Shown one piece after another: positions 14,385 to 23,416 of a DNA stretch of 64,000 nt; the stretch's first letter is position 1, and each line of letters opens with the position of its first letter. Origin of the DNA: Candidatus Hydrogenedentota bacterium. Lineage in GTDB: Bacteria; Hydrogenedentota; Hydrogenedentia; Hydrogenedentales; SLHB01. Made by a program: the position numbers and the translations under genes. The notes beneath the pieces are model-generated. The model did not search any database. It was not told the origin of the DNA and worked only from the letters and a program-made list of their open reading frames with translations. The stretch spans positions 512,001 to 576,000 of the forward strand of contig CAXXTH010000010.1 in the NCBI GenBank assembly GCA_963668025.2, written 5' to 3'.

Positions 14385-17045
14385 ATGGAGAACACAGAAC
14401 TTCGAGGCCTGATCGATGCGCTCGATGATCTGCCCACCCTGCCATCGGTAGTGGTGCAGTTGCTCGAGTTGACACAGGACGATTTTGCCGATGCGGCGAG
14501 CATTGCCCGGGTCATCGAATCGGACCAAACACTTACCGCCCGCATTTTGCGCCTTGTAAACTCCTCGTTCTACACCTTTGATAGCGAGGTGACTACGGTG
14601 TCCCGGGCGGTGGCGGCCATCGGGCTTAATTCCATTCGTTGCATCGCCTTAGGCATGGGCGTCGCGCGCATGTTTCCCAAACACAGCGGGACTGGCGCGT
14701 TTCGGATGGAGGATTTTTGGAAGCATTCACTGGCCTGCGCCGTAGCCTCGAAACTGCTCGCGGAGGGAAGCTCGCGCTCCATCGATCCGGATGAAGCGTT
14801 TGTGGCGGGCCTTCTGCATGATATTGGCAAGCTCGTGCTGCTTTCTTGCCGCAGCGAGTTGTATGATGCCGCCGTGGCGAGGGCCAAGGAAAACGGTTTA
14901 TCGCTGCTGGAGTCGGAACGCCGCTCGCTGGGCGCAAGCCATACGGAAGCGGGAAAATGGTTTAGCGAACGCTGGGGCCTTCCCGATGTGCTCACGCAGG
15001 CCATTTGGCTTCATCACCAGCCCACGGGGTCCGTGGGGAAGGAATTTCGCGCGCCGCTAATCTATACCGTCCAGGTGGCGGATGCCTTGGCCCATTTGCT
15101 TCGGATCGGCGCGAGCGGCAACGACAAGGTGGTGGGCATTGATGATGCGCAAATCGCCGAGATTGGCGTCGCCCATCAGTATATTGATGAGTTGAAGCGG
15201 ACGCTTTGGGATCGCGTCGAAGAATACTCATGCGCGGTGGACCTTGACCTGAAGAAAGCGGATTTATATATCGAATCGCTGGAACGGGCCAATCAAAAAT
15301 TATCCAAGCTGTCCCTCAAGTTCGAGGAACAAAACCGCCAGCTCACACGGCGCGAGCGGCGTTTTCGCGCGCTGCATGAAATAAACACCAAGCTCATACT
15401 TGGGCAGAGCATGCCGGAGGTGATGAGCCTGTTGTCGCAAGGGCTTCGGGATGGTTATGACATCACCAATGGCTTGTGCTATGTCGCGAACACCCAAAGC
15501 TATATGCTGCATGGCGTGATGTGGAAAGCGGGCGCACGCAGCCAGGAATTCTCGCTTGCGGTGCAGAGTGATGGCCGCATTGACACCTCGAAAGCCGCCG
15601 TACTAGACCCGGGCATGCAAATGTTGCTGGCGGAAACGGCCCTCCAGTTTGACGGTTTCGGCTGGCTGGGGCGGACGATGACGGAGATCATGCGGCGTAA
15701 AGAGCTTCTGATCGTGCCCATGGTCAGCGAAGGGCGCAGCCTGGGACAATTGGTGCTGGATTTTCGCGGCGAAAAGTGTCCGCCGAATTTTGATCCCGGC
15801 ATGGGCGAGATCATGGCGTTCGCGTCGGCGGCCGGACTTGCGGTGTCGCGGGTGCAAGTGCATGAAACCTTGCGCCGGCGGTCAGAAGAGCTGGCCGGCG
15901 CTATCCGGAAAAAGGAAACGGCTTACAAGGAATTGCTGCATTCCGAGCGTCTAGCGGCTGTAGGCAAAATGGCGGCGGGCGCGGCCCATGAGGTGAATAA
16001 TCCGCTCGCGATCATTTCGGGCCGGGCGCAAATGATGCTCCAGCGGGAACGGAGCGACGATGAGTCCAAGCAGCTTCAATTGATTGTCGATCAATGCAGC
16101 CGTGCGTCGAAAATCCTCAACGATTTGATGCGGTTTGCCCGCCCCGCCCTGCCAAAGAAGGAAGTGGTGGGCGTCAATAGCGTCGTGTATGAAGTGCTGG
16201 ATATGTTCGATCACCGGTATGAAAAACAGGGTATCTCCCTGCAACGGGAATTCGCGACGGACCTGCCGAAAGTAATGATTGACAAGCATCAGATCCAGCA
16301 AGTGCTGGTGAACCTCCTGATTAATGCCGAGCATGCCATCACGGCCCCTGGAACGGTTACGGTGCGCACCAGCCTGCATAGTTCAGGAAGCAAAGTGTGC
16401 ATTGCGGTAGGCGATACGGGTTGCGGCATTCCTCGAGAGCACCTGCACAGCATATTCGAGCCGTTTTTTACGACAAAAGAAGAAGGCCAAGGAACCGGGC
16501 TGGGCTTGTCGCTCGCGCATGGGATTGTCACCAGCCATCAAGGCGTGATCACGGTCCAAAGCGAAGTCGGCAAAGGCACGACGTTCACGATTTCACTGCC
16601 GCCCGCCGTGGATGTGGCGAACGTGAAATCGGATGAAACGCCCCCCGAGACTAAGCCTGCCGTGCAGGCCGCACCCATGCGGAAACGTATCCTGGTCGTG
16701 GATGATGAACAGGAAGTGCGTTCGCTGATTGCGGAGGCTATGTCGCATTCGGGCTATGAGGTGACACAAGCCGAGAACGGCTTGGTGGCCCTCCAGCTCG
16801 CGCGGCGGATGGTCTTTGACCTAATGACCGTGGATATCCGCATGCCGCGCATTGACGGCATGGCTATGCTCCGGGCATTGCGTGAACGCGGCGGCAAAAC
16901 CCCTGTCGTTGTGATAACCGGCATGGCTTCTGACGAGGAAATCGATGAAGCCCGTGCGCTGGGAGTGGCGGTGGTGATCCGTAAGCCGTTTGAAGTAAGC
17001 GAGCTGCTGAGCGAAGTGTCTAAGGCCCTCACCGCGAAGCGATAA
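14385..17045 (+). CDS. HDOD-domain hybrid histidine kinase (HDOD-GAF-like-HisKA-HATPase-REC)
   Basis: LPTLP/DQTLTARILRLVNS/GLLHDIGK (HDOD); AHEVNNPL; NLLINA; FFTTK..GQGTGLGL; ILVVDD..DIRMP..KPF. Confidence 0.92.
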   Translation: MENTELRGLIDALDDLPTLPSVVVQLLELTQDDFADAASIARVIESDQTLTARILRLVNSSFYTFDSEVTTVSRAVAAIGLNSIRCIALGMGVARMFPKHSGTGAFRMEDFWKHSLACAVASKLLAEGSSRSIDPDEAFVAGLLHDIGKLVLLSCRSELYDAAVARAKENGLSLLESERRSLGASHTEAGKWFSERWGLPDVLTQAIWLHHQPTGSVGKEFRAPLIYTVQVADALAHLLRIGASGNDKVVGIDDAQIAEIGVAHQYIDELKRTLWDRVEEYSCAVDLDLKKADLYIESLERANQKLSKLSLKFEEQNRQLTRRERRFRALHEINTKLILGQSMPEVMSLLSQGLRDGYDITNGLCYVANTQSYMLHGVMWKAGARSQEFSLAVQSDGRIDTSKAAVLDPGMQMLLAETALQFDGFGWLGRTMTEIMRRKELLIVPMVSEGRSLGQLVLDFRGEKCPPNFDPGMGEIMAFASAAGLAVSRVQVHETLRRRSEELAGAIRKKETAYKELLHSERLAAVGKMAAGAAHEVNNPLAIISGRAQMMLQRERSDDESKQLQLIVDQCSRASKILNDLMRFARPALPKKEVVGVNSVVYEVLDMFDHRYEKQGISLQREFATDLPKVMIDKHQIQQVLVNLLINAEHAITAPGTVTVRTSLHSSGSKVCIAVGDTGCGIPREHLHSIFEPFFTTKEEGQGTGLGLSLAHGIVTSHQGVITVQSEVGKGTTFTISLPPAVDVANVKSDETPPETKPAVQAAPMRKRILVVDDEQEVRSLIAEAMSHSGYEVTQAENGLVALQLARRMVFDLMTVDIRMPRIDGMAMLRALRERGGKTPVVVITGMASDEEIDEARALGVAVVIRKPFEVSELLSEVSKALTAKR

Positions 17046-17199: not shown

Positions 17200-17357
17200 G
17201 AAACCTGGTCTCTAACGAGTTTATGTATATTGATTTATACAGAAAATCCATGCAAAGAAACAAGATTTCGCAAATAGTAGTATGGATTCAATGCCTTTAC
17301 GGGCTTATTGCATCGACGTCGGCCCCAAACCGCAGTGTTCATACAAACACGGGATAA

Positions 17358-18449
17358 CTACATCCGCGCGATTTCCTCCTGGTGTTTCCGGTAAAGACCC
17401 CTAAACTGGTGGTACGTAAGGCCAAGGAGTTCGGCAGCGTGCCGCTGATTGAATTGGGCCTTGCGGAGCGCCTGCCGGAGCAACCTCAATTCGAGCTGGC
17501 ATATGGCCTCATTGAAAGGCAGGTTTAAGAGATCGCTGGGAGCGCTGGGCGGTCGTGAGGGCGGTTCAGGTTCCGGCTGTCCGGGAATGGGTGAGACGGG
17601 TTCAATCGCCGTGGACGATGCATACGGCGGCTCGAAGGGATCGAACACCACTTCCTCCGCCGTAATGAGGTTGTCGTCGGAGCGGTATACGGCGCGTTCG
17701 ATGACGTTCTTTAGTTCCCGCACATTGCCAGGCCACTGGTACTTTTCGAGGAGTTGCGCCGCTCCTTCGGTGAAAACCGGCATTTCATCCAGCTTGAGTT
17801 CATATGCCATGCGGTTGGCGAAATGGGACGCCAGCAGCATAATGTCTTCGCTCCGTTCCCGCAACGGCGGCACAAAGAGCACTTCAAAAGATAAGCGGTC
17901 CAGCAGGTCGCTTTTAAAACGCTCCTGGCGGACCAATTCGCGCAGATCGGCGTTTGTGGCTCCAATGATCCGCACATCCACCTGCACGGATTGAGAACCG
18001 CCCACGCGCTCGAACGCGCCATATTCAACGGCCCGCAGAATCTTCTCTTGGGTTTCTATGGGGATATTCCCGATTTCATCCAGGAAAAGGGTGCCCCCGT
18101 TCGAAGCCTCGAAACGCCCCACCCGGCGCCGCGCCGCGCCCGTGAATGCCCCTTCTTCATGGCCGAATAATTCCGATTCGATGAGCGAGGCCGGGAGGGC
18201 GGCGCAATTCAGCGCTACAAACGGCTCCTGCCACCGGCTGGATAGAAAATGGAGCCGCGCCGCCGCAAGCTCTTTGCCGGACCCCCGTTCGCCAATAATC
18301 AATACCGAACGGTCCACGCGCGCCACACGCGATAGGCATTCCTGAAAGGTGAGGAATACCTCGGATTGCCCCAAAGCCTCTCGTATCTCGGTAGGGGGTT
18401 GATTAGGCGTCTTATGGTTGTGAGAGGAGCCGTTCATGGAATTTGCCAT
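17358..18449 (-). CDS. pspF: Phage shock protein transcriptional activator PspF (sigma54 bEBP lacking a regulatory domain)
   Basis: [69 protein letters not shown] tail; divergent from pspC. Confidence 0.92.
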
Positions 18450-18504
18450 AGCAAACCTCGCTAATATGTTGCTTCTTACGCCACAGGATAGCATTTTTCG
18501 CCAA
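18448..18504. promoter_or_regulatory. Two PspF-type upstream activating sequences
   Basis: ATAGCA-aacc-TCGCTAA (18448-18464) and ATAGCA-tttt-TCGCCAA (18488-18504), 40 bp apart, resembling the E. coli psp UAS as recalled (TTAGTGTAATTCGCTAA). Confidence 0.65.
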
Positions 18505-18580
18505 CATTTTGCAAGGGCCTTTTTTAAGCTATTCTGGCGCAACCCATTCATTTCATTGTTGTTGCAAGAAAATCGGCTGC

Positions 18581-18596
18581 TTGGCATGCGATTTGC
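18581..18596 (+). promoter_or_regulatory. sigma54 (-24/-12) promoter
   Basis: TTGGCATGCGATTTGC: GG at 18583 and GC at 18595, canonical spacing; next to pspF. Confidence 0.88.
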
Positions 18597-18607
18597 CATA
18601 GAGTAGA

Positions 18608-18846
18608 TATTGAAGGGGAATCACAGAGGTGGTTGAACGGCCCGAGCAGGAAGCGCGGGCGATACATCAACACCCCGGTTCCTTAACTGCGCACGGAGCG
18701 GAAGCGATTTGGAGGCGTGGAAACTGTGGACCAATGGGAGGTCCGCAACCCGAACCCTGAACCCGTCCACGCTTCGAGAAAGCCAACGCTCCGTGCGCGT
18801 CATCTCAGTAAACACTGCGCGGGCGAAAAAACAAACCCCGCGCGCA
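18608..18846 (+). ncRNA. Candidate structured ncRNA or long 5' leader transcribed from the sigma54 promoter
   Basis: Nested stems: 18615-22/18677-84, 18628-36/18667-74, 18640-44/18656-60; perfect 12-bp 18689-700/18787-98, 18712-21/18766-75, 18725-32/18740-47; 18817-23/18837-43. No convincing ORF. Confidence 0.55.
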
Positions 18847-18892
18847 AAAGAATAGAGAATGGAATCTGCGCATAAAAGGAGGGAGTACAAAG

Positions 18893-18976
18893 GTGCGCGG
18901 CGCGGACAGGAAACTTAATGAGCTATACAGGGATTATTATTACAACGTAGCCGGATGCGGAAAGCTTGCCGAGTGA
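18893..18976 (+). CDS. Putative 27-aa small protein (MRGADRKLNELYRDYYYNVAGCGKLAE)
   Basis: AGGAGG RBS at 18878-18883, then GTG...TGA; no homology recognised. Confidence 0.3.
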   Translation: MRGADRKLNELYRDYYYNVAGCGKLAE

Positions 18977-19018
18977 AAAGGCTGGGCGCGGCGCAAGGCA
19001 TGGCGGCAGGAGGTGGGC

Positions 19019-19249
19019 ATGTCGATGGAATATGGATACGAGCATAAGGGGCTCTACCGCTCCCGCACGGGTATGCTTTTTGGCGTGTGTAAAGGGCTGG
19101 CGGAGTATTTTGATCTATCACTGTTTTGGCTGCGGGTGATTGTGCTGGTGTTGTTTGTCAGCACGGGATTCATCCCAGCGGGTCTGGCATATATTTTAGC
19201 GGCGCTGTTGATGAAGCTTGAGCCGCGATATTCCGCCTATACGGAATAA
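19019..19249 (+). CDS. pspC: PspC domain membrane protein
   Basis: LYRSR.GM.FGVCKGLAEYFD...LRVI...AYI.AAL.M; AGGAGG RBS. Confidence 0.9.
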   Translation: MSMEYGYEHKGLYRSRTGMLFGVCKGLAEYFDLSLFWLRVIVLVLFVSTGFIPAGLAYILAALLMKLEPRYSAYTE

Positions 19250-19360
19250 AGGCCTCTCTCCGAGAGCGGAGCCGCACACCCTCATGGTATGTTTCCTCCC
19301 ACTCCCCCCTGGCAGCATCCATGGCGGCTCCGCTCCTTCCTTGTACTCCACTTGGCCCGT

Positions 19361-21049
19361 TCAGCGCAATTCCATAAAGCCGGGCGGCTTGGGCGGGGCG
19401 GGGCGCTGGTTGCCGTATCCGGTTTTCGCTAGGTCATACACGGGGATACGGCGGGCGCGCTCGAGCTCGAGGGCGCGGACATATGCGATGCCTTGTAAAG
19501 GCGATGCAAAGGGCGGCAGGTATTCCGCCTCCAATAAAATACGTCCGAAGGATTGTTTGAACGCACGCACAGGCTGGGCGTTCTCGGGGAGCATGGGCAG
19601 GTCATCGGGATATTCGCCAAAATGCAGACGGGTCGAATCAGCCGCCAGAAAGCGCGGCGGAGTCTCGCCTGTGGCGATTTCCATGTTCAAATCATCCGCT
19701 TCGACGCCTGCTTCCATGGCGTAGCAGGTGAGAAGCGCCGGATACACGCCGCACACCCGCGTCTCACCCTGGCTTTTAACATAGGCCAGGGCCTCGGGAT
19801 AGGCCGAACGGATGGACAAGACTTCCCGGATATTCCATAACGTGGAACACGCGCCCGCCGCAAGCAGCGCAACAAGCACTGCGCGCACGAAGGATTGCCG
19901 TTTCGCATGCGTATGCCAGGCGGCGTCCACGGCTACGGCGAATAGGCCCGCCCAGTACGGAAGCAAGAAAATATAGGGGCGCGCCGCAGGCATGCCTTTC
20001 ACGGCGATGACCCAGTAGGTGGCGAGCAGGCCCGGCAGCAGGTAGCTCCATCGACGATAGGCACCCGGCCCGCGCTGGAAAGCGCCCATTAGGCCGAGAG
20101 CCGCACTTAAGACGCCCAATCCCGCCGCCATTCCCGCCGCGCCCCATCCCTCGAAGCGCCAGAATAGGTAGGGGAAAATCACCAGGCCAGACCAATGTGA
20201 GTGAATCGAGGTGTGGAAGGTGACGCGAGGCCATTGCATCTGTAAAAAGGTGCGGTGCGGATACGTGAGCCCTTGCGAACGGAACAACAGGATGGATGGA
20301 TAGGTCGAGGCTTCCGCAACGGCCACGGCCAGCAAAAATCCAACACCCAGCGCCGTCCACCCTCCCAGGCATAGGCCAATGCACCGCCGCCAGCCGGTTT
20401 CCCGCGCGCACAGCAGCGCATGGGTGATCAACAATCCAGGCAGCACGACCGTCGCTTGATAGGAGGCCCAAAACGCCATGCCCAGGCTGAATCCGCCCGC
20501 CAGCAGCCAGCCATAACTTTTCCGCTCCTCGCTCCATCGCGCGTGGCAGGCCATGGCCATCAGGGCGAAGCAGCCAGGCAGGCATTGGGGATACGAATTG
20601 CGGGATTGATAGACATGGAAACAGGATATTGCCATGATGGCCGCCGCGATGAGCCCGGCGCGCGGCCCCGCGATGCGGCGCATCCAGAAAAAGAAGACCG
20701 CTACACTGAGCAGGCCAAAAGCAGCCTCGGTGGCGTTTCCCGCCCAGGTGGTGAAGCCGGTGAAACACATGATGCCGCCCGCGCAATAGTAGAACAACGT
20801 TTTCGGCCAGAATACGCCATAGGTTTCCAGCGTGGCCGCCATGCGCGGGACATATTCGGACAGCAGAAATTCGCGCCCGCCGAATGCTTCTCCCGCTTTT
20901 CCCATGAAAATGCCCGCCCATCCGCGCAGCTCGTGGCTCTTCGCGAGGGCGTCAAGCAGATAACGTCCTTCGTCAATGGAATACATACCGGTGTGGCGAA
21001 TGGCGTAAAAGCGCAGCGCCGCCGCCACGAGCAAAATGGCCGCGAGCAA
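19361..21049 (-). CDS. GT-C membrane glycosyltransferase (ArnT/PMT-like, GT39/GT83 type)
   Basis: LRFY...SIDEGRY first-loop DE motif, AGLIAAAIMAIS.FHVYQSR, many TM helices; start uncertain. Confidence 0.75.
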   Translation of the reverse strand: MLAAILLVAAALRFYAIRHTGMYSIDEGRYLLDALAKSHELRGWAGIFMGKAGEAFGGREFLLSEYVPRMAATLETYGVFWPKTLFYYCAGGIMCFTGFTTWAGNATEAAFGLLSVAVFFFWMRRIAGPRAGLIAAAIMAISCFHVYQSRNSYPQCLPGCFALMAMACHARWSEERKSYGWLLAGGFSLGMAFWASYQATVVLPGLLITHALLCARETGWRRCIGLCLGGWTALGVGFLLAVAVAEASTYPSILLFRSQGLTYPHRTFLQMQWPRVTFHTSIHSHWSGLVIFPYLFWRFEGWGAAGMAAGLGVLSAALGLMGAFQRGPGAYRRWSYLLPGLLATYWVIAVKGMPAARPYIFLLPYWAGLFAVAVDAAWHTHAKRQSFVRAVLVALLAAGACSTLWNIREVLSIRSAYPEALAYVKSQGETRVCGVYPALLTCYAMEAGVEADDLNMEIATGETPPRFLAADSTRLHFGEYPDDLPMLPENAQPVRAFKQSFGRILLEAEYLPPFASPLQGIAYVRALELERARRIPVYDLAKTGYGNQRPAPPKPPGFMELR

Positions 21050-22070
21050 GCCGACATGCCGCGTGCGACTGGCCGGCGTTTGGGATGGCGCAGCTATGAT
21101 GAACCTCTTTTCGTTTTTGGTGTGCTTGTATATTCATTGTACAGCGTCTTGGCGGATGAAATATAGCTGTAGCGGTGCTCTTTCAGGGCAATCGCATTAA
21201 AAAGACCATGCTTCGGCACTTGACGCCGCCGCCCGACCTTAGCCGAAGTTCTTTCTGCAGTTTTTTGCCTCGCACTGTTCCCATTTCTTTCTCTTCGTAG
21301 TCAAGCTGGGTATGTTTTATCAGTAATATTAGTTAGATATTTATCTAATTATATGATATTTTGCGTCCATGGCTCACCGAAAGGAGAATGGACCCATGAA
21401 CGCGAATCAAAGCCTATTTTTCGTTCACTTTGGACAAATCGATGACCCTCGCCTTGAGCGCAAGAAGCGGCAGAGCCAAGGAACAGTGGCTGCGCACATT
21501 CCTCAAACTCGAAAATGGCATTCCTTCCCACGATACCTTCGGGCGCTTCTTTTCCCTGCTCAACCCCGCGGTCTTCCAGCAGTGTTTCATCAACTGGGTT
21601 CGGGCGCTCCAGCCACAGGTGGAAGGCGTTGTCGCGATTGACGGCAAGACGGCACGCCGCTCGCACGACCAAACCCAAGGCAAGAAGGCCATCCACGTGG
21701 TGAGCGCTTGGGCCACGAGCAATGGGCTGTCCTTGGGGCAGACCAAAGTGAACGATAAGTCCAACGAAATCACCGCTATCCCTGAATTGATCAAGCTCTT
21801 GGAACTGCGAGGCTGTCTGATTACCATCGACGCCATGGGCTGTCAACGGGAAATCGCCCAGACGATTGTCGACGCCGGTGCAGACTACTTGCTGGCGGTC
21901 AAGGGCAATCAGGAAACCCTTGCCGAGGATGTGGAACAGGAGTTCAAAGAGGCAATGGCCCAGGATTTCGCCCACATGGACCACCAGTATTACGAAACCC
22001 TCGAAAAGAACCACGGGCGCACGGAAAAACGCCAGTATTGGCTCACAAAGGATATTGCAGGATTAGGCCC

Positions 22071-23416
22071 CATAAGCGCTAACCTTATTTGATGTCTCCT
22101 GACGAATCTTCTATACTGGGTGCATGGAAGCAGCGTGGAATGAGAATTGGCAGTGTTTACAGCGTTTTCTCCCTGCTGGATGGGAGGACAAGGCTCGTGA
22201 ATTGGGCGCGTGGCACCGCAAGCCTCGTTCTATATCGTCGACGGAATCGCTCCTGCGCTTGCTGTTGATCCATTTGGCGGATGGGTGTTCTCTGCGTGAG
22301 GCTGTCGTTCGTGCTCGAGAAGGGAATGTGGCGTCCGTGTCGGATGTGGCACTTCTTAAGCGGTTGCGTGCTTCGGGGGAATGGCTGCGGTGGATGGCCG
22401 TAGAGATACTTCAACGTCGCGCGGGACCGTGCGTTCGGCCTGCATGGCTGGAGTATTACCGTGTTCGCGTCGTGGATGCGAGCGTTGTCTGCGAACCGGG
22501 AAGCACGGGAACGGACTGGCGCGTTCACTACAGCCTATGTTTATACGGTCTTCAATGCGATGAGTTTCATATTACCGGCCCGAAGGTTGGAGAGAGTTTC
22601 GCGCGATTCCGAGTCTCGCCTGGCGACCTATTGCTCGGAGATCGTGCTTATGGGCATCTCAAAGGTTTTCGTTATGTGCTCGGCCATAACGGGAACTTTC
22701 TGACGCGTCTTAAGAATAAAGCCTTCAGTCTTCGGAATGGCGCAGGGAACACCTGTCCACTGGCTGGATTGGTGGCGTCTCTAGAGGTAGGGGAAGTGGG
22801 TGATTGGGCCCTGATTGGCCAGGCAAAGGGGCAGGAGGAGCTGGCGCTACGGATCTGTGCGCTGCGTTTGAGCGAGGAAGCCGCCGCGCAAAGCATCCGC
22901 CGGGCGAAGAAAGAGCTAAGCAAGAAGCAACGGAGTCTGGATCCCGAAACGCTTGTGCTGCATCGCTACGTCATACTGGCCACATCCTTGCCGGATTCAA
23001 TATCGCCGCACCAGGTTATCGAGTTGTACCGGGCGCGCTGGCAGGTGGAGTTGGCCTTCAAACGGATGAAGTCGATTATGGGATTGGGACACTTGCCAAA
23101 GGAAGACGAGGAGTCGGCCAAGGCTTGGCTCCACGGCAAAATGCTTGTCTCCTGCCTTGCCCAGGCCATTGTTGATGAGGGGCGCTTTTTTTCCCCCTGG
23201 GGATATCCACTGTGACGATATCTACCGCGAGGCCTCCTTGTGGCGCGAACTCTCTTTCGCCTTGCACCTCCTTCGCCAAGCGGTCAATCCGACGCTTGGA
23301 TTATCCGAATGCATCAGCCAGTGGCGGGAAATCGCGAGAGATCTGGCAGAGCCCCCAAGGAAGCGAATGCAACAGTTGCGTGGTTTGATGGAGGCAATAT
23401 AAGGTTAGCGCTTATG
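22071..23416 (+). mobile_element. IS4-family element, IS186/IS421-like
   Basis: Perfect 18-bp TIR cataagcgctaaccttat; 11-bp TSD ggattaggccc (22060-22070, 23417-23427); removing it restores the ISAs1 sequence. Confidence 0.95.
22124..23215 (+). CDS. IS4-family DDE transposase
   Basis: VVDAS, LGDRAY, YRARWQVELAFKRMKS (YREK motif). Confidence 0.93.
   Translation: MEAAWNENWQCLQRFLPAGWEDKARELGAWHRKPRSISSTESLLRLLLIHLADGCSLREAVVRAREGNVASVSDVALLKRLRASGEWLRWMAVEILQRRAGPCVRPAWLEYYRVRVVDASVVCEPGSTGTDWRVHYSLCLYGLQCDEFHITGPKVGESFARFRVSPGDLLLGDRAYGHLKGFRYVLGHNGNFLTRLKNKAFSLRNGAGNTCPLAGLVASLEVGEVGDWALIGQAKGQEELALRICALRLSEEAAAQSIRRAKKELSKKQRSLDPETLVLHRYVILATSLPDSISPHQVIELYRARWQVELAFKRMKSIMGLGHLPKEDEESAKAWLHGKMLVSCLAQAIVDEGRFFSPWGYPL

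Follow-up and report, generated by a model that had tools for sequence, protein, structure and literature searches.

The stretch of DNA analysed here (the window) comprises 64,000 nucleotides from a Candidatus Hydrogenedentota bacterium (assembly GCA_963668025.2, contig CAXXTH010000010.1, positions 512,001 to 576,000; genome G000 in what follows) and contains a Psp locus organised around two divergent transcription units. On the minus strand, pspF (17358-18449), recognised through Pfam and NCBIfam matches, codes for a sigma-54 enhancer-binding activator that carries Sigma54_activat (Pfam, 1.2e-60), AAA_lid_14 and HTH_8 domains, and whose score against the NCBIfam equivalog TIGR02974 (470.8 bits) exceeds the cut-off of 443.55. 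Since its AAA+ domain begins at residue 27, this PspF is devoid of a receiver domain, and the match to TIGR02974 is in line with the preliminary description of the locus, which had presented the protein as lacking a regulatory domain. The two boxes resembling upstream activating sequences that had been pointed out are recovered by a repeat search as 25-nt direct repeats (18448-18472 and 18488-18512) with 72% identity and a spacing of 40 nt, and their position, 70-135 nt 5' of the promoter, makes them candidate PspF sites. The promoter itself, TGGCAT-N5-TTGC, was read from the sequence on the plus strand at 18582-18596, practically where it had been placed before (18581-18596). It combines a -24 GG and a -12 GC element, is divergent from pspF and has an equivalent in other relatives, including genome G007, which belongs to the same family but to another genus. 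This promoter is predicted to direct transcription from a start near 18608.

Between the promoter and pspC lies a gap of ~416 nt (18597-19012) in which no open reading frame of at least 60 aa with a family match was found. The absence of pspA and pspB before pspC, claimed previously, therefore holds, as there is no PspA-like frame in this interval. A decayed gene was likewise rejected: tblastn searches of the gap with 18 PilZ, 2 PspA and 1 PspB proteins yielded nothing above noise (best score 19.6 bits, in a two-sequence database), and a PilZ HMM run by hmmsearch on the six-frame translations of the G000 and G007 leaders did not go beyond 0.2 bits. The small open reading frame of the preliminary description is present, its limits being corrected to 18893-18976 on the plus strand, where the translation gives 27 codons with a GTG start, preceded 10 nt upstream by AGGAGG; no family was found for it in a scan covering a shorter range. 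It is followed on the same strand by a short pspC of 76 aa (19019-19249, with ATG at 19019 and an alternative GTG at 19013; Pfam PspC, 4.9e-16), which is 62% identical to that of G007 and reaches 59.9 bits against TIGR02978, under the equivalog cut-off of 104, and is thus to be regarded as a short PspC-domain protein. An IS-like gene is located 2.5 kb from the locus. In the rest of the G000 genome, pspA, pspB and pspC are all present, and the main pspA operon is located away from this locus; the search for pspA that had been proposed places it on contigs C11 (134.8 bits) and C18 (38.5 bits), unlinked to pspF. The locus is clearly rearranged, both PilZ and pspA being missing here.

The first part of the predicted transcript adopts a marked secondary structure. 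When compared with shuffled sequences, as had been suggested, the RNAfold minimum-free-energy fold of 18608-18850 on the plus strand (-107.5 kcal/mol) corresponds to a z-score of -5.90, none of 200 shuffles being as low, whereas the minus strand of the same stretch folds worse (-101.6, z -3.62). This fold reproduces the nested stems that had been outlined earlier, namely two domains, a C-rich strand and a third hairpin. Domain 1 (18615-18684, plus strand), common to the minimum-free-energy and centroid folds, is a stack of helices with a GC-AGGAA-GC hairpin at its tip; a different hairpin occupies this position in G007. Domain 2 (18689-18798, plus strand) is a long irregular helix with a perfect 12-bp closing stem, and encloses what is hereafter called the core. 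The latter starts with a hairpin (18725-18747, plus strand), delineated by the fold and by comparison with G007, with a stem of 6-8 bp whose nucleotides remain unpaired with a probability of 0-0.1, and a loop of 6-7 nt; the last nucleotides of this loop, on its 3' side, belong to a GGAGG that extends into the beginning of the stem. It continues with a C-rich strand containing three AACCC repeats (18748-18765, plus strand), defined by the fold and by its identity in G007, with unpaired probabilities of 0.6-0.99 in G000 and mostly of 0.7-0.99 in G007, where a few 3' positions are paired. Hairpin 3 (18815-18843, plus strand) has a GC-rich stem and no U tract after it, and a terminator scan of 18300-19500 on the plus strand detected no intrinsic terminator. 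The G-U mismatches previously noticed in the stems are real, 9 of the 75 pairs of the fold being of this type, and the Shine-Dalgarno sequence of the 27-codon frame is left accessible, with an unpaired probability of 0.7-0.99. Finally, the statement that the RNA belongs to no known Rfam family is sustained by a scan of 18300-19400 on both strands (Rfam 15, 0 matches at E <= 10), and the idea of a dispersed repeat is countered by the finding, from both BLAST and the covariance model, of a single copy in G000.

An argument for a selected function comes from G007, in which pspF and the sigma-54 promoter are followed by a ~300-nt leader, pspA and pspC, the RNA lying directly 5' of pspA. The leaders of the two genomes can be aligned at the promoter and over a core of 37-39 nt only, within which a run of 29 nt is identical. 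This core consists of the short hairpin, in which GGAGG occupies part of the loop and the positions next to it, and of the subsequent strand with three AACCC repeats; the stem TGGACC...GGTCCG is the same in both genomes, and the loop varies in length (7 versus 6 nt) as well as in sequence. Given that the PspF proteins are just 64-80% identical, neutral sites are expected to be saturated. In addition, the sequences on either side of the core, although dissimilar between the genomes, pair with each other into a long helix in each of them, their complementarity being supported by z-scores of -6.2 and -5.9 in G000 and of -5.3 and -6.8 in G007 (0/300 shuffles equally good in each test). The strand asymmetry of folding is also found in G007 (sense -148.4, z -3.96, versus antisense -124.3, z -0.78). 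The pattern of an invariant core within variable complementary flanks is therefore observed in two genomes, a sample that precludes formal column-by-column covariation statistics; the consensus that RNAalifold derived from the pair of domain 2 sequences is poor and uninformative, because the alignment loses its register outside the core.

The same comparison changes the way in which the locus has to be read. The RNA had been described as standing where pspA should be, which is not tenable: it is located upstream of pspA in G007, and in 25 of the 29 other relatives it is a PilZ gene that directly follows the promoter, pspA coming next. Since the same RNA is found 5' of pspA in a relative, it is better seen as a leader coexisting with pspA than as a substitute for it. 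Nor is it a simple replacement of PilZ, given that G007 also carries a PilZ-pspA operon elsewhere; in G000, no close orthologue of the PilZ protein of this slot was found. Across lineages, the head of the operon is thus of three kinds, a PilZ gene, the RNA, or neither of them.

The element appears to be rare. Among 135 genomes of the phylum, both a pattern search allowing up to 3 mismatches and a covariance model recovered 2 genomic copies only, the next-best match to covariance model R1 scoring 26.6 bits versus 79-82 for the two copies. Those of the weak matches to the model (21-27 bits) that were inspected were judged non-homologous, one lying in a coding frame and one being a GC hairpin between genes, accompanied by AAACC repeats. 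Applied with the same tolerance to 133 genomes at the level of the order and to the 135 of the phylum, the pattern search gave a sole extra match, within a 455-aa open reading frame of G069, which was rejected. A scan of genome contigs with an 18-mer retrieved 93 stretches, and the full motif was present in L123 only, which is the G007 sequence; many of the other stretches share conserved surroundings that look coding-like by eye. The 10 stretches obtained from metagenomes with a 20-mer of the C-rich strand were discarded as well, as none has the hairpin and 7 of them lie in runs of similar repeats of 6-7 nt. Two reading frames overlapping the element were also considered and rejected: in G000 and G007 alike, plus-strand frames read through the core in the same phase, with an agreement confined to the nucleotide-identical part, which argues against a leader peptide, and an 89-aa frame on the minus strand has no homologue at E <= 10.

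The core is, besides, present in RNA libraries. Three metatranscriptome contigs from two studies, two in X16 and one in X9, contain it, the matching stretch being 62 nt long with 1 difference in one case, 39 nt long with 3 differences in another and 93 nt long with 5 in the third; these contigs of 168-239 nt come from relatives and are assemblies rather than reads, in which strand, ends and level cannot be read and to which DNA carry-over may have contributed. They cover the C-rich strand, and all three continue into unlike sequence. In one of them (X9), a loose end of 30 letters resembles by eye the 3' half of domain 1. In the DNA runs X4 (43% covered) and X6, no piece across the core was found.

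Taken together, these data support in part the proposal that the main output of the promoter may be an envelope-stress non-coding RNA or a regulatory leader. The part of this claim that stands is that a structured RNA, which may be a leader or a non-coding RNA and may act in cis or in trans, comes first from the promoter, as indicated by the core, the pairing of its flanks, the preferential folding of the sense strand and the RNA-library contigs. As the core is identical in a distant relative, the element is likely to be a new regulatory RNA acting in the Psp response to membrane stress. It may be a leader, possibly also the source of a stable RNA, that is recognised through its invariant core. 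In the reading that we prefer, to which a probability of about one half can be given, it is a new, rare and cis-acting structured leader whose core is read by a trans factor that sets the PspC output of the transcript started by PspF. Under this model, 18608-18850 would be a selected structured RNA forming the 5' part of a PspF/sigma-54 transcript starting at ~18608, and this transcript would continue into the 27-codon frame and pspC. The working module, that is the GGAGG hairpin and the ~20-nt strand with its three AACCC repeats, would be displayed on a long helical rod and be read by a trans-acting factor, more likely a protein than a small molecule. This putative factor would determine the share of the transcript that becomes PspC, plus PspA in G007, by acting on the stability or the processing of the mRNA or by causing premature termination, and processing may leave a stable RNA of ~170-240 nt. 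That the RNA is a leader rather than a separate gene is suggested by the lack of an intrinsic terminator before the downstream genes and by its position directly before pspA in G007. What counts against a leader is that, in G000, it precedes just a tiny frame and pspC. No expression platform was found either, the Shine-Dalgarno sequence of the 27-codon frame being unpaired and the plus strand having no terminator. Rho loading at the C-rich strand is unlikely, given that this strand offers just ~20 nt inside a stable rod.

Among the other explanations, a trans-acting small RNA forming the non-coding arm of the Psp response, released from the 5' part of the transcript as a stable species of ~200 nt and pairing through its C-rich repeats with G-rich regions of target mRNAs, as C-rich small RNAs do in Firmicutes, is unlikely. 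It would account for the fact that conservation is highest in a single strand exposed on a stable rod, for the shortness (168-239 nt) of the RNA-library contigs and for the retention of the RNA in G000 though the pspA behind it was lost. Small-RNA arms also exist in other envelope stress responses. However, while such an RNA would have its own promoter, neither a terminator nor a defined 3' end was found, and Hfq was not found in G000 (93.75% complete). The C-rich strand, moreover, is not complementary to the local Shine-Dalgarno sequences of the GGAGG type. Trans targets with long complementarity were searched for in G000 and discarded, as the complements of at least 13 nt to this strand amount to one 14-mer, antisense to a coding region.

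The slot shared with PilZ invites explanations based on signal reception. It is doubtful that the PspF/sigma-54-driven RNA, by means of an invariant hairpin and AACCC module that would sense a signal or capture a factor, is a new riboswitch class or a protein sponge that would have taken over the input of the PilZ c-di-GMP receptor; such an RNA component is not known from any Psp system. More narrowly, the hairpin and the C-rich strand could form the ligand pocket of a riboswitch, for instance through a pseudoknot between loop and strand, with a signalling nucleotide as a possible ligand, since a c-di-GMP receptor of the PilZ type holds the slot in most relatives. The invariant unpaired nucleotides amid variable helices, the position in a 5' leader, the presence of PilZ in the same slot in 25/29 of the relatives' loci and the lack of a close orthologue of it in G000 would all fit. 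This is nevertheless improbable: no Rfam riboswitch, both c-di-GMP classes included, matches at E <= 10, no expression platform is seen, the PilZ-pspA operon still exists elsewhere in G007, and the possible pairing between loop and strand, judged by eye, is of merely 3-4 bp.

An element acting as DNA, such as an operator, a roadblock or a recombination site ~120 bp 3' of the promoter, is highly improbable. Although the inverted repeat GGACC...GGTCC and the direct AACCC repeats of the core could be read by DNA-binding proteins, the spacing of the half-sites is unequal between the genomes (7 versus 6 nt), the long-range complementarity of the flanks is kept, a feature not required of a site bound by protein, folding is strand-asymmetric and makes use of G-U pairs, and the core is present in RNA libraries. 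Equally hard to sustain is the absence of any function, the RNA being then a lost-gene remnant or a chance fold in a GC-rich spacer, as might be imagined from a rearranged locus missing pspA and PilZ close to an IS-like gene and from the 2 genomic copies, given the 29-nt identity between genera with leaders that otherwise defy alignment, the z-scores of -5.9 (G000) and -3.96 (G007), the lack of a detectable protein remnant and the recurrence of the core in RNA-library contigs from two studies.

If the preferred reading of a cis-acting leader is true, a conserved RNA heading a PspF-dependent transcript would represent a post-transcriptional layer undescribed for Psp, in a phylum for which experimental genetics is scarce or lacking. 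Our literature search, supplements such as the motif lists of PMC5737381 lying outside its scope, found no RNA element in Psp control and no PilZ-psp operon. Because the element is rare, its general importance would be limited unless more members appear.

Several known RNAs resemble it in part. It shares with 6S RNA a rod-like helix that ends in a hairpin and carries a large, asymmetrically placed unpaired region, but is unpaired on one strand only, spans 110-138 nt, is part of an mRNA leader and gives no Rfam 6S match. As in leaders and sponges bound by CsrA/RsmA, GGA occurs in the AGGAA loop of domain 1, at the end of the core hairpin loop and, in G000, in the Shine-Dalgarno sequence, and G000 has a CsrA gene (91 bits); among these GGA hairpins, however, that of the core alone is common to G007, and nothing in CsrA recognition accounts for the invariant AACCC strand. 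RsaE/RoxS are C-rich small RNAs of Firmicutes, and several unpaired C-rich motifs on a stable scaffold are found here too, although the motif is AACCC instead of UCCC, the phylum is different, the present RNA has neither terminator nor Rfam match, and target complementarity of at least 13 nt was not found. Qrr, GlmY/GlmZ and CrcZ are sigma-54-dependent regulatory RNAs; in the same way, an enhancer-binding protein and sigma-54 would drive here a structured RNA with repeated short unpaired motifs, which differs from them in giving no Rfam match at E <= 10, in being without a terminator of its own and in being continuous with coding genes. Finally, Psp control is understood as relying on proteins only, PspF being held by PspA while PspB and PspC sense membrane damage. 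The locus conforms to the canonical enterobacterial Psp system by its receiver-less PspF, its divergent sigma-54 promoter with upstream repeats and its downstream pspC, but departs from it in that the promoter leads into a ~290-nt structured untranslated RNA instead of pspA, that pspA is unlinked to pspF in G000, and that a PilZ gene comes first in most relatives. The three operon heads, PilZ, the RNA or neither, offer a clean natural comparison between lineages, which points to second-messenger or RNA-based signals being linked with the control of membrane stress.

The pspF gene of the window (17358-18449, minus strand) encodes a 363-aa sigma-54 activator with an AAA+ domain from residue 27 and a Fis-type HTH at its end, and therefore without receiver domain, which scores 470.8 bits against the NCBIfam PspF equivalog, above the cut-off of 443.55. 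Its upstream region holds a pair of 25-nt direct repeats (18448-18472 and 18488-18512) and, beyond them, a textbook -24/-12 promoter, TGGCAT-N5-TTGC (18582-18596). No recognisable gene was found in the 416 nt 3' of this promoter; then come a 27-codon ORF with a good Shine-Dalgarno sequence (18893-18976), pspC, which encodes a short PspC-domain protein (19019-19249), and a convergent gene for a PMT_2-type glycosyltransferase. An exact 11-nt direct repeat (18441-18451 and 18591-18601), whose copies overlap the pspF start codon and, at the divergent promoter, the -12 element plus predicted start site, respectively, may be due to chance. Further out, a large hybrid sensor (HDOD, HisKA, HATPase_c and receiver domain; 14385-17045, plus strand) is located just past the 3' end of pspF. 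In addition, the translation of a 220-aa ORF (21430-22092, plus strand), about 2.2 kb 3' of pspC, appears to resemble an IS-family transposase (ISAs1/H-repeat type), and this ORF could be tied to the rearrangement of the psp locus.

The preliminary description had placed a three-part folded RNA, with G-U pairs and not recognised as a known Rfam family, where pspA would be expected. The minimum-free-energy fold of 18608-18850 (plus strand) bears this out, with domain 1 (18615-18684), domain 2 (18689-18798) and hairpin 3 (18815-18843) at the positions proposed and G-U pairs making up 9 of the 75 pairs. This leader folds at -107.5 kcal/mol, compared to -78.8 +/- 4.9 for 200 dinucleotide shuffles (z -5.9), none of which is as stable, and its antisense strand is less stable (z -3.6). 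Inside domain 2, the core comprises a hairpin (18725-18747) and a C-rich strand with three AACCC repeats (18748-18765), whose unpaired probability is 0.6-0.99. A cmscan search of Rfam 15 returned zero matches at E <= 10, and the stretch is single copy in the 6.1-Mb genome (G000). A dead-gene origin of the leader was rejected, as neither a PilZ HMM nor queries with PspA, PspB and PilZ proteins detect a remnant in it.

The missing pspA does exist elsewhere in G000, on contig C11 (134.8 bits) and, as a weaker match, on contig C18. The main psp operon, on C11 (L014:4111-8310, minus strand), consists of a sigma-54 promoter and a leader of about 60 nt, followed by pspA, a PspB-like gene, two unassigned ORFs, a DUF4097 'toastrack' protein gene and a 129-aa pspC, longer than that of the window. 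Since no pspF adjoins this operon, the window PspF probably activates both loci. Tandem ATAGCA-containing repeats, loosely like the boxes beside the window pspF, occur about 430 nt upstream of the C11 promoter.

Within a phylum set of 135 genomes, orthologue-level PspF (>= 428 bits) is present in 46 of the 53 other genomes of the family, the copy of G007, a relative from another genus, being split across two contig ends. Among 29 pspF loci examined (L028-L056), pspA is divergent from pspF in 27, and in 24 of these the two genes are 708-824 nt apart, the gap being occupied by a PilZ-domain ORF. By a purpose-built PilZ HMM, this ORF, which has about 165 aa and opens the PspF-dependent operon before pspA, is found in 25 of the 29 loci (L029-L046, L049, L050, L052-L056), including one cut at a contig end; Pfam confirmed PilZ for the two ORFs submitted. 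Three loci have pspA immediately 3' of the promoter, one is without divergent operon, and none of the 29 shows similarity to the window leader. These PilZ-first operons suggest a c-di-GMP input into the Psp response of this family; no close orthologue of the psp-linked PilZ was found in G000, and literature listings and a full-text term search turned up no mention of psp operons that begin with a PilZ gene.

The one homologous leader in a relative is that of G007, where the order is pspF, sigma-54 promoter, a leader of about 300 nt, pspA (217.5 bits against TIGR02977, under the equivalog cut-off) and a short pspC, 62% identical to that of the window. The two leaders can be aligned only at the promoter and over a core of 37-39 nt, made of the hairpin TGGACC/loop/GGTCCG and the C-rich strand and including an identical run of 29 nt; the hairpin loop varies in sequence and length (7 nt in G000, 6 in G007). 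As PspF identity is only 64-80%, a non-coding run conserved to this degree points to selection on the core. The 45-60 nt on each side show no similarity between the genomes, yet pair with each other in both (z -6.2 and -5.9 in G000, -5.3 and -6.8 in G007; 0 of 300 shuffles as good per test). Besides, the sense strand of the G007 leader reaches -148.4 kcal/mol (z -3.96), against only -124.3 for the antisense (z -0.78; 20 of 100 shuffles as good). This is the pattern expected for an RNA with compensatorily kept helices and a fixed recognition module, two sequences being short of a formal covariation test and RNAalifold on the pair being uninformative. G007 also has a second, unlinked sigma-54/PilZ/pspA operon, whose pspA is 74% identical to that of C11; both genomes therefore carry an RNA-led operon beside pspF and the main pspA operon elsewhere, and G000 has also lost pspA behind the RNA.

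With regard to distribution, a 26-mer search (up to 3 mismatches) of the 135 genomes for further copies gave a single extra match, within a 455-aa ORF of G069, and a covariance model of the core scored 82.4 bits in G000, 79.2 in G007 and 26.6 for the next match. Among 185,579 species genomes, an exact 18-mer occurred in 93 stretches, of which the only one with the full motif is the same sequence as G007, and 0 of the 10 metagenome stretches sharing an exact 20-mer had the hairpin. On these searches, the element is rare among assembled genomes, with two apparent genomic members. Locus L155 (G106:C774:559-618; 23.1 bits), an intergenic GC-rich hairpin followed by AACCCG/AAACC-type repeats between two convergent genes, was rejected as a homologue, the likeness being superficial. 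Metagenome contigs L017-L019, L022-L024 and L026 contain heptamer-like repeats in arrays, related to GAACCCT and in several cases close to contig ends; these resemble telomere-type repeats, are unrelated to the psp RNA and share the C-rich 20-mer by chance.

Twenty public runs share words with the stretch, four being RNA libraries from four studies; two of these (metatranscriptomes X16 and X9) and two DNA runs (X4 and X6) were compared with 17300-19500. Core-bearing contigs occur in both RNA libraries: in X16, 239 nt covering 18711-18772 (1 difference) and 219 nt covering 18727-18765 (3 differences), and in X9, 168 nt covering 18685-18777 (5 differences), preceded by 30 letters that by eye look like the 3' half of domain 1. 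Each of the three continues into non-window sequence and thus comes from a relative; the element accordingly has at least three further variants. The remaining RNA-library matches, short pieces over pspF (17694-18209; 2-7 differences each), are interpreted as conserved AAA+ motifs from other organisms, and no piece over the core was found in X4 (43% read) or X6. These data are consistent with transcription of the leader RNA, at fair abundance, in related organisms from sludge, the contigs showing neither strand, ends nor level and DNA carry-over being possible.

In neither genome was an intrinsic terminator found between the RNA and the ORFs that follow it; a 5' leader is therefore the simplest reading of the RNA. 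The strictly conserved portion is an exposed module on a helical rod and looks like a candidate docking site for a factor that would bind the core; a cis-acting, factor-bound leader ranks first (probability about 0.5). A CsrA gene is present in G000, with GGA lying within two hairpin loops of the leader, but CsrA would leave the invariant AACCC repeats unexplained. A processed trans-acting sRNA is possible but clearly less probable, neither Hfq nor a long complementary target for the C-rich strand having been found in G000. A riboswitch is doubtful: the Shine-Dalgarno sequence of the 27-codon ORF is open in the fold, though its GTG start is paired, and no classical expression platform was found at the window leader. 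A DNA-level site, next to folds more stable on the sense strand, and an element devoid of function, next to the conserved core, are both very improbable.

Literature listings and a full-text term search turned up no description of RNA elements in the control of Psp. Taken together, the locus is classed as a Psp operon whose leader RNA is structured and novel, an element that is real and new, but rare; the protein components are those of an ordinary Psp system, rearranged.
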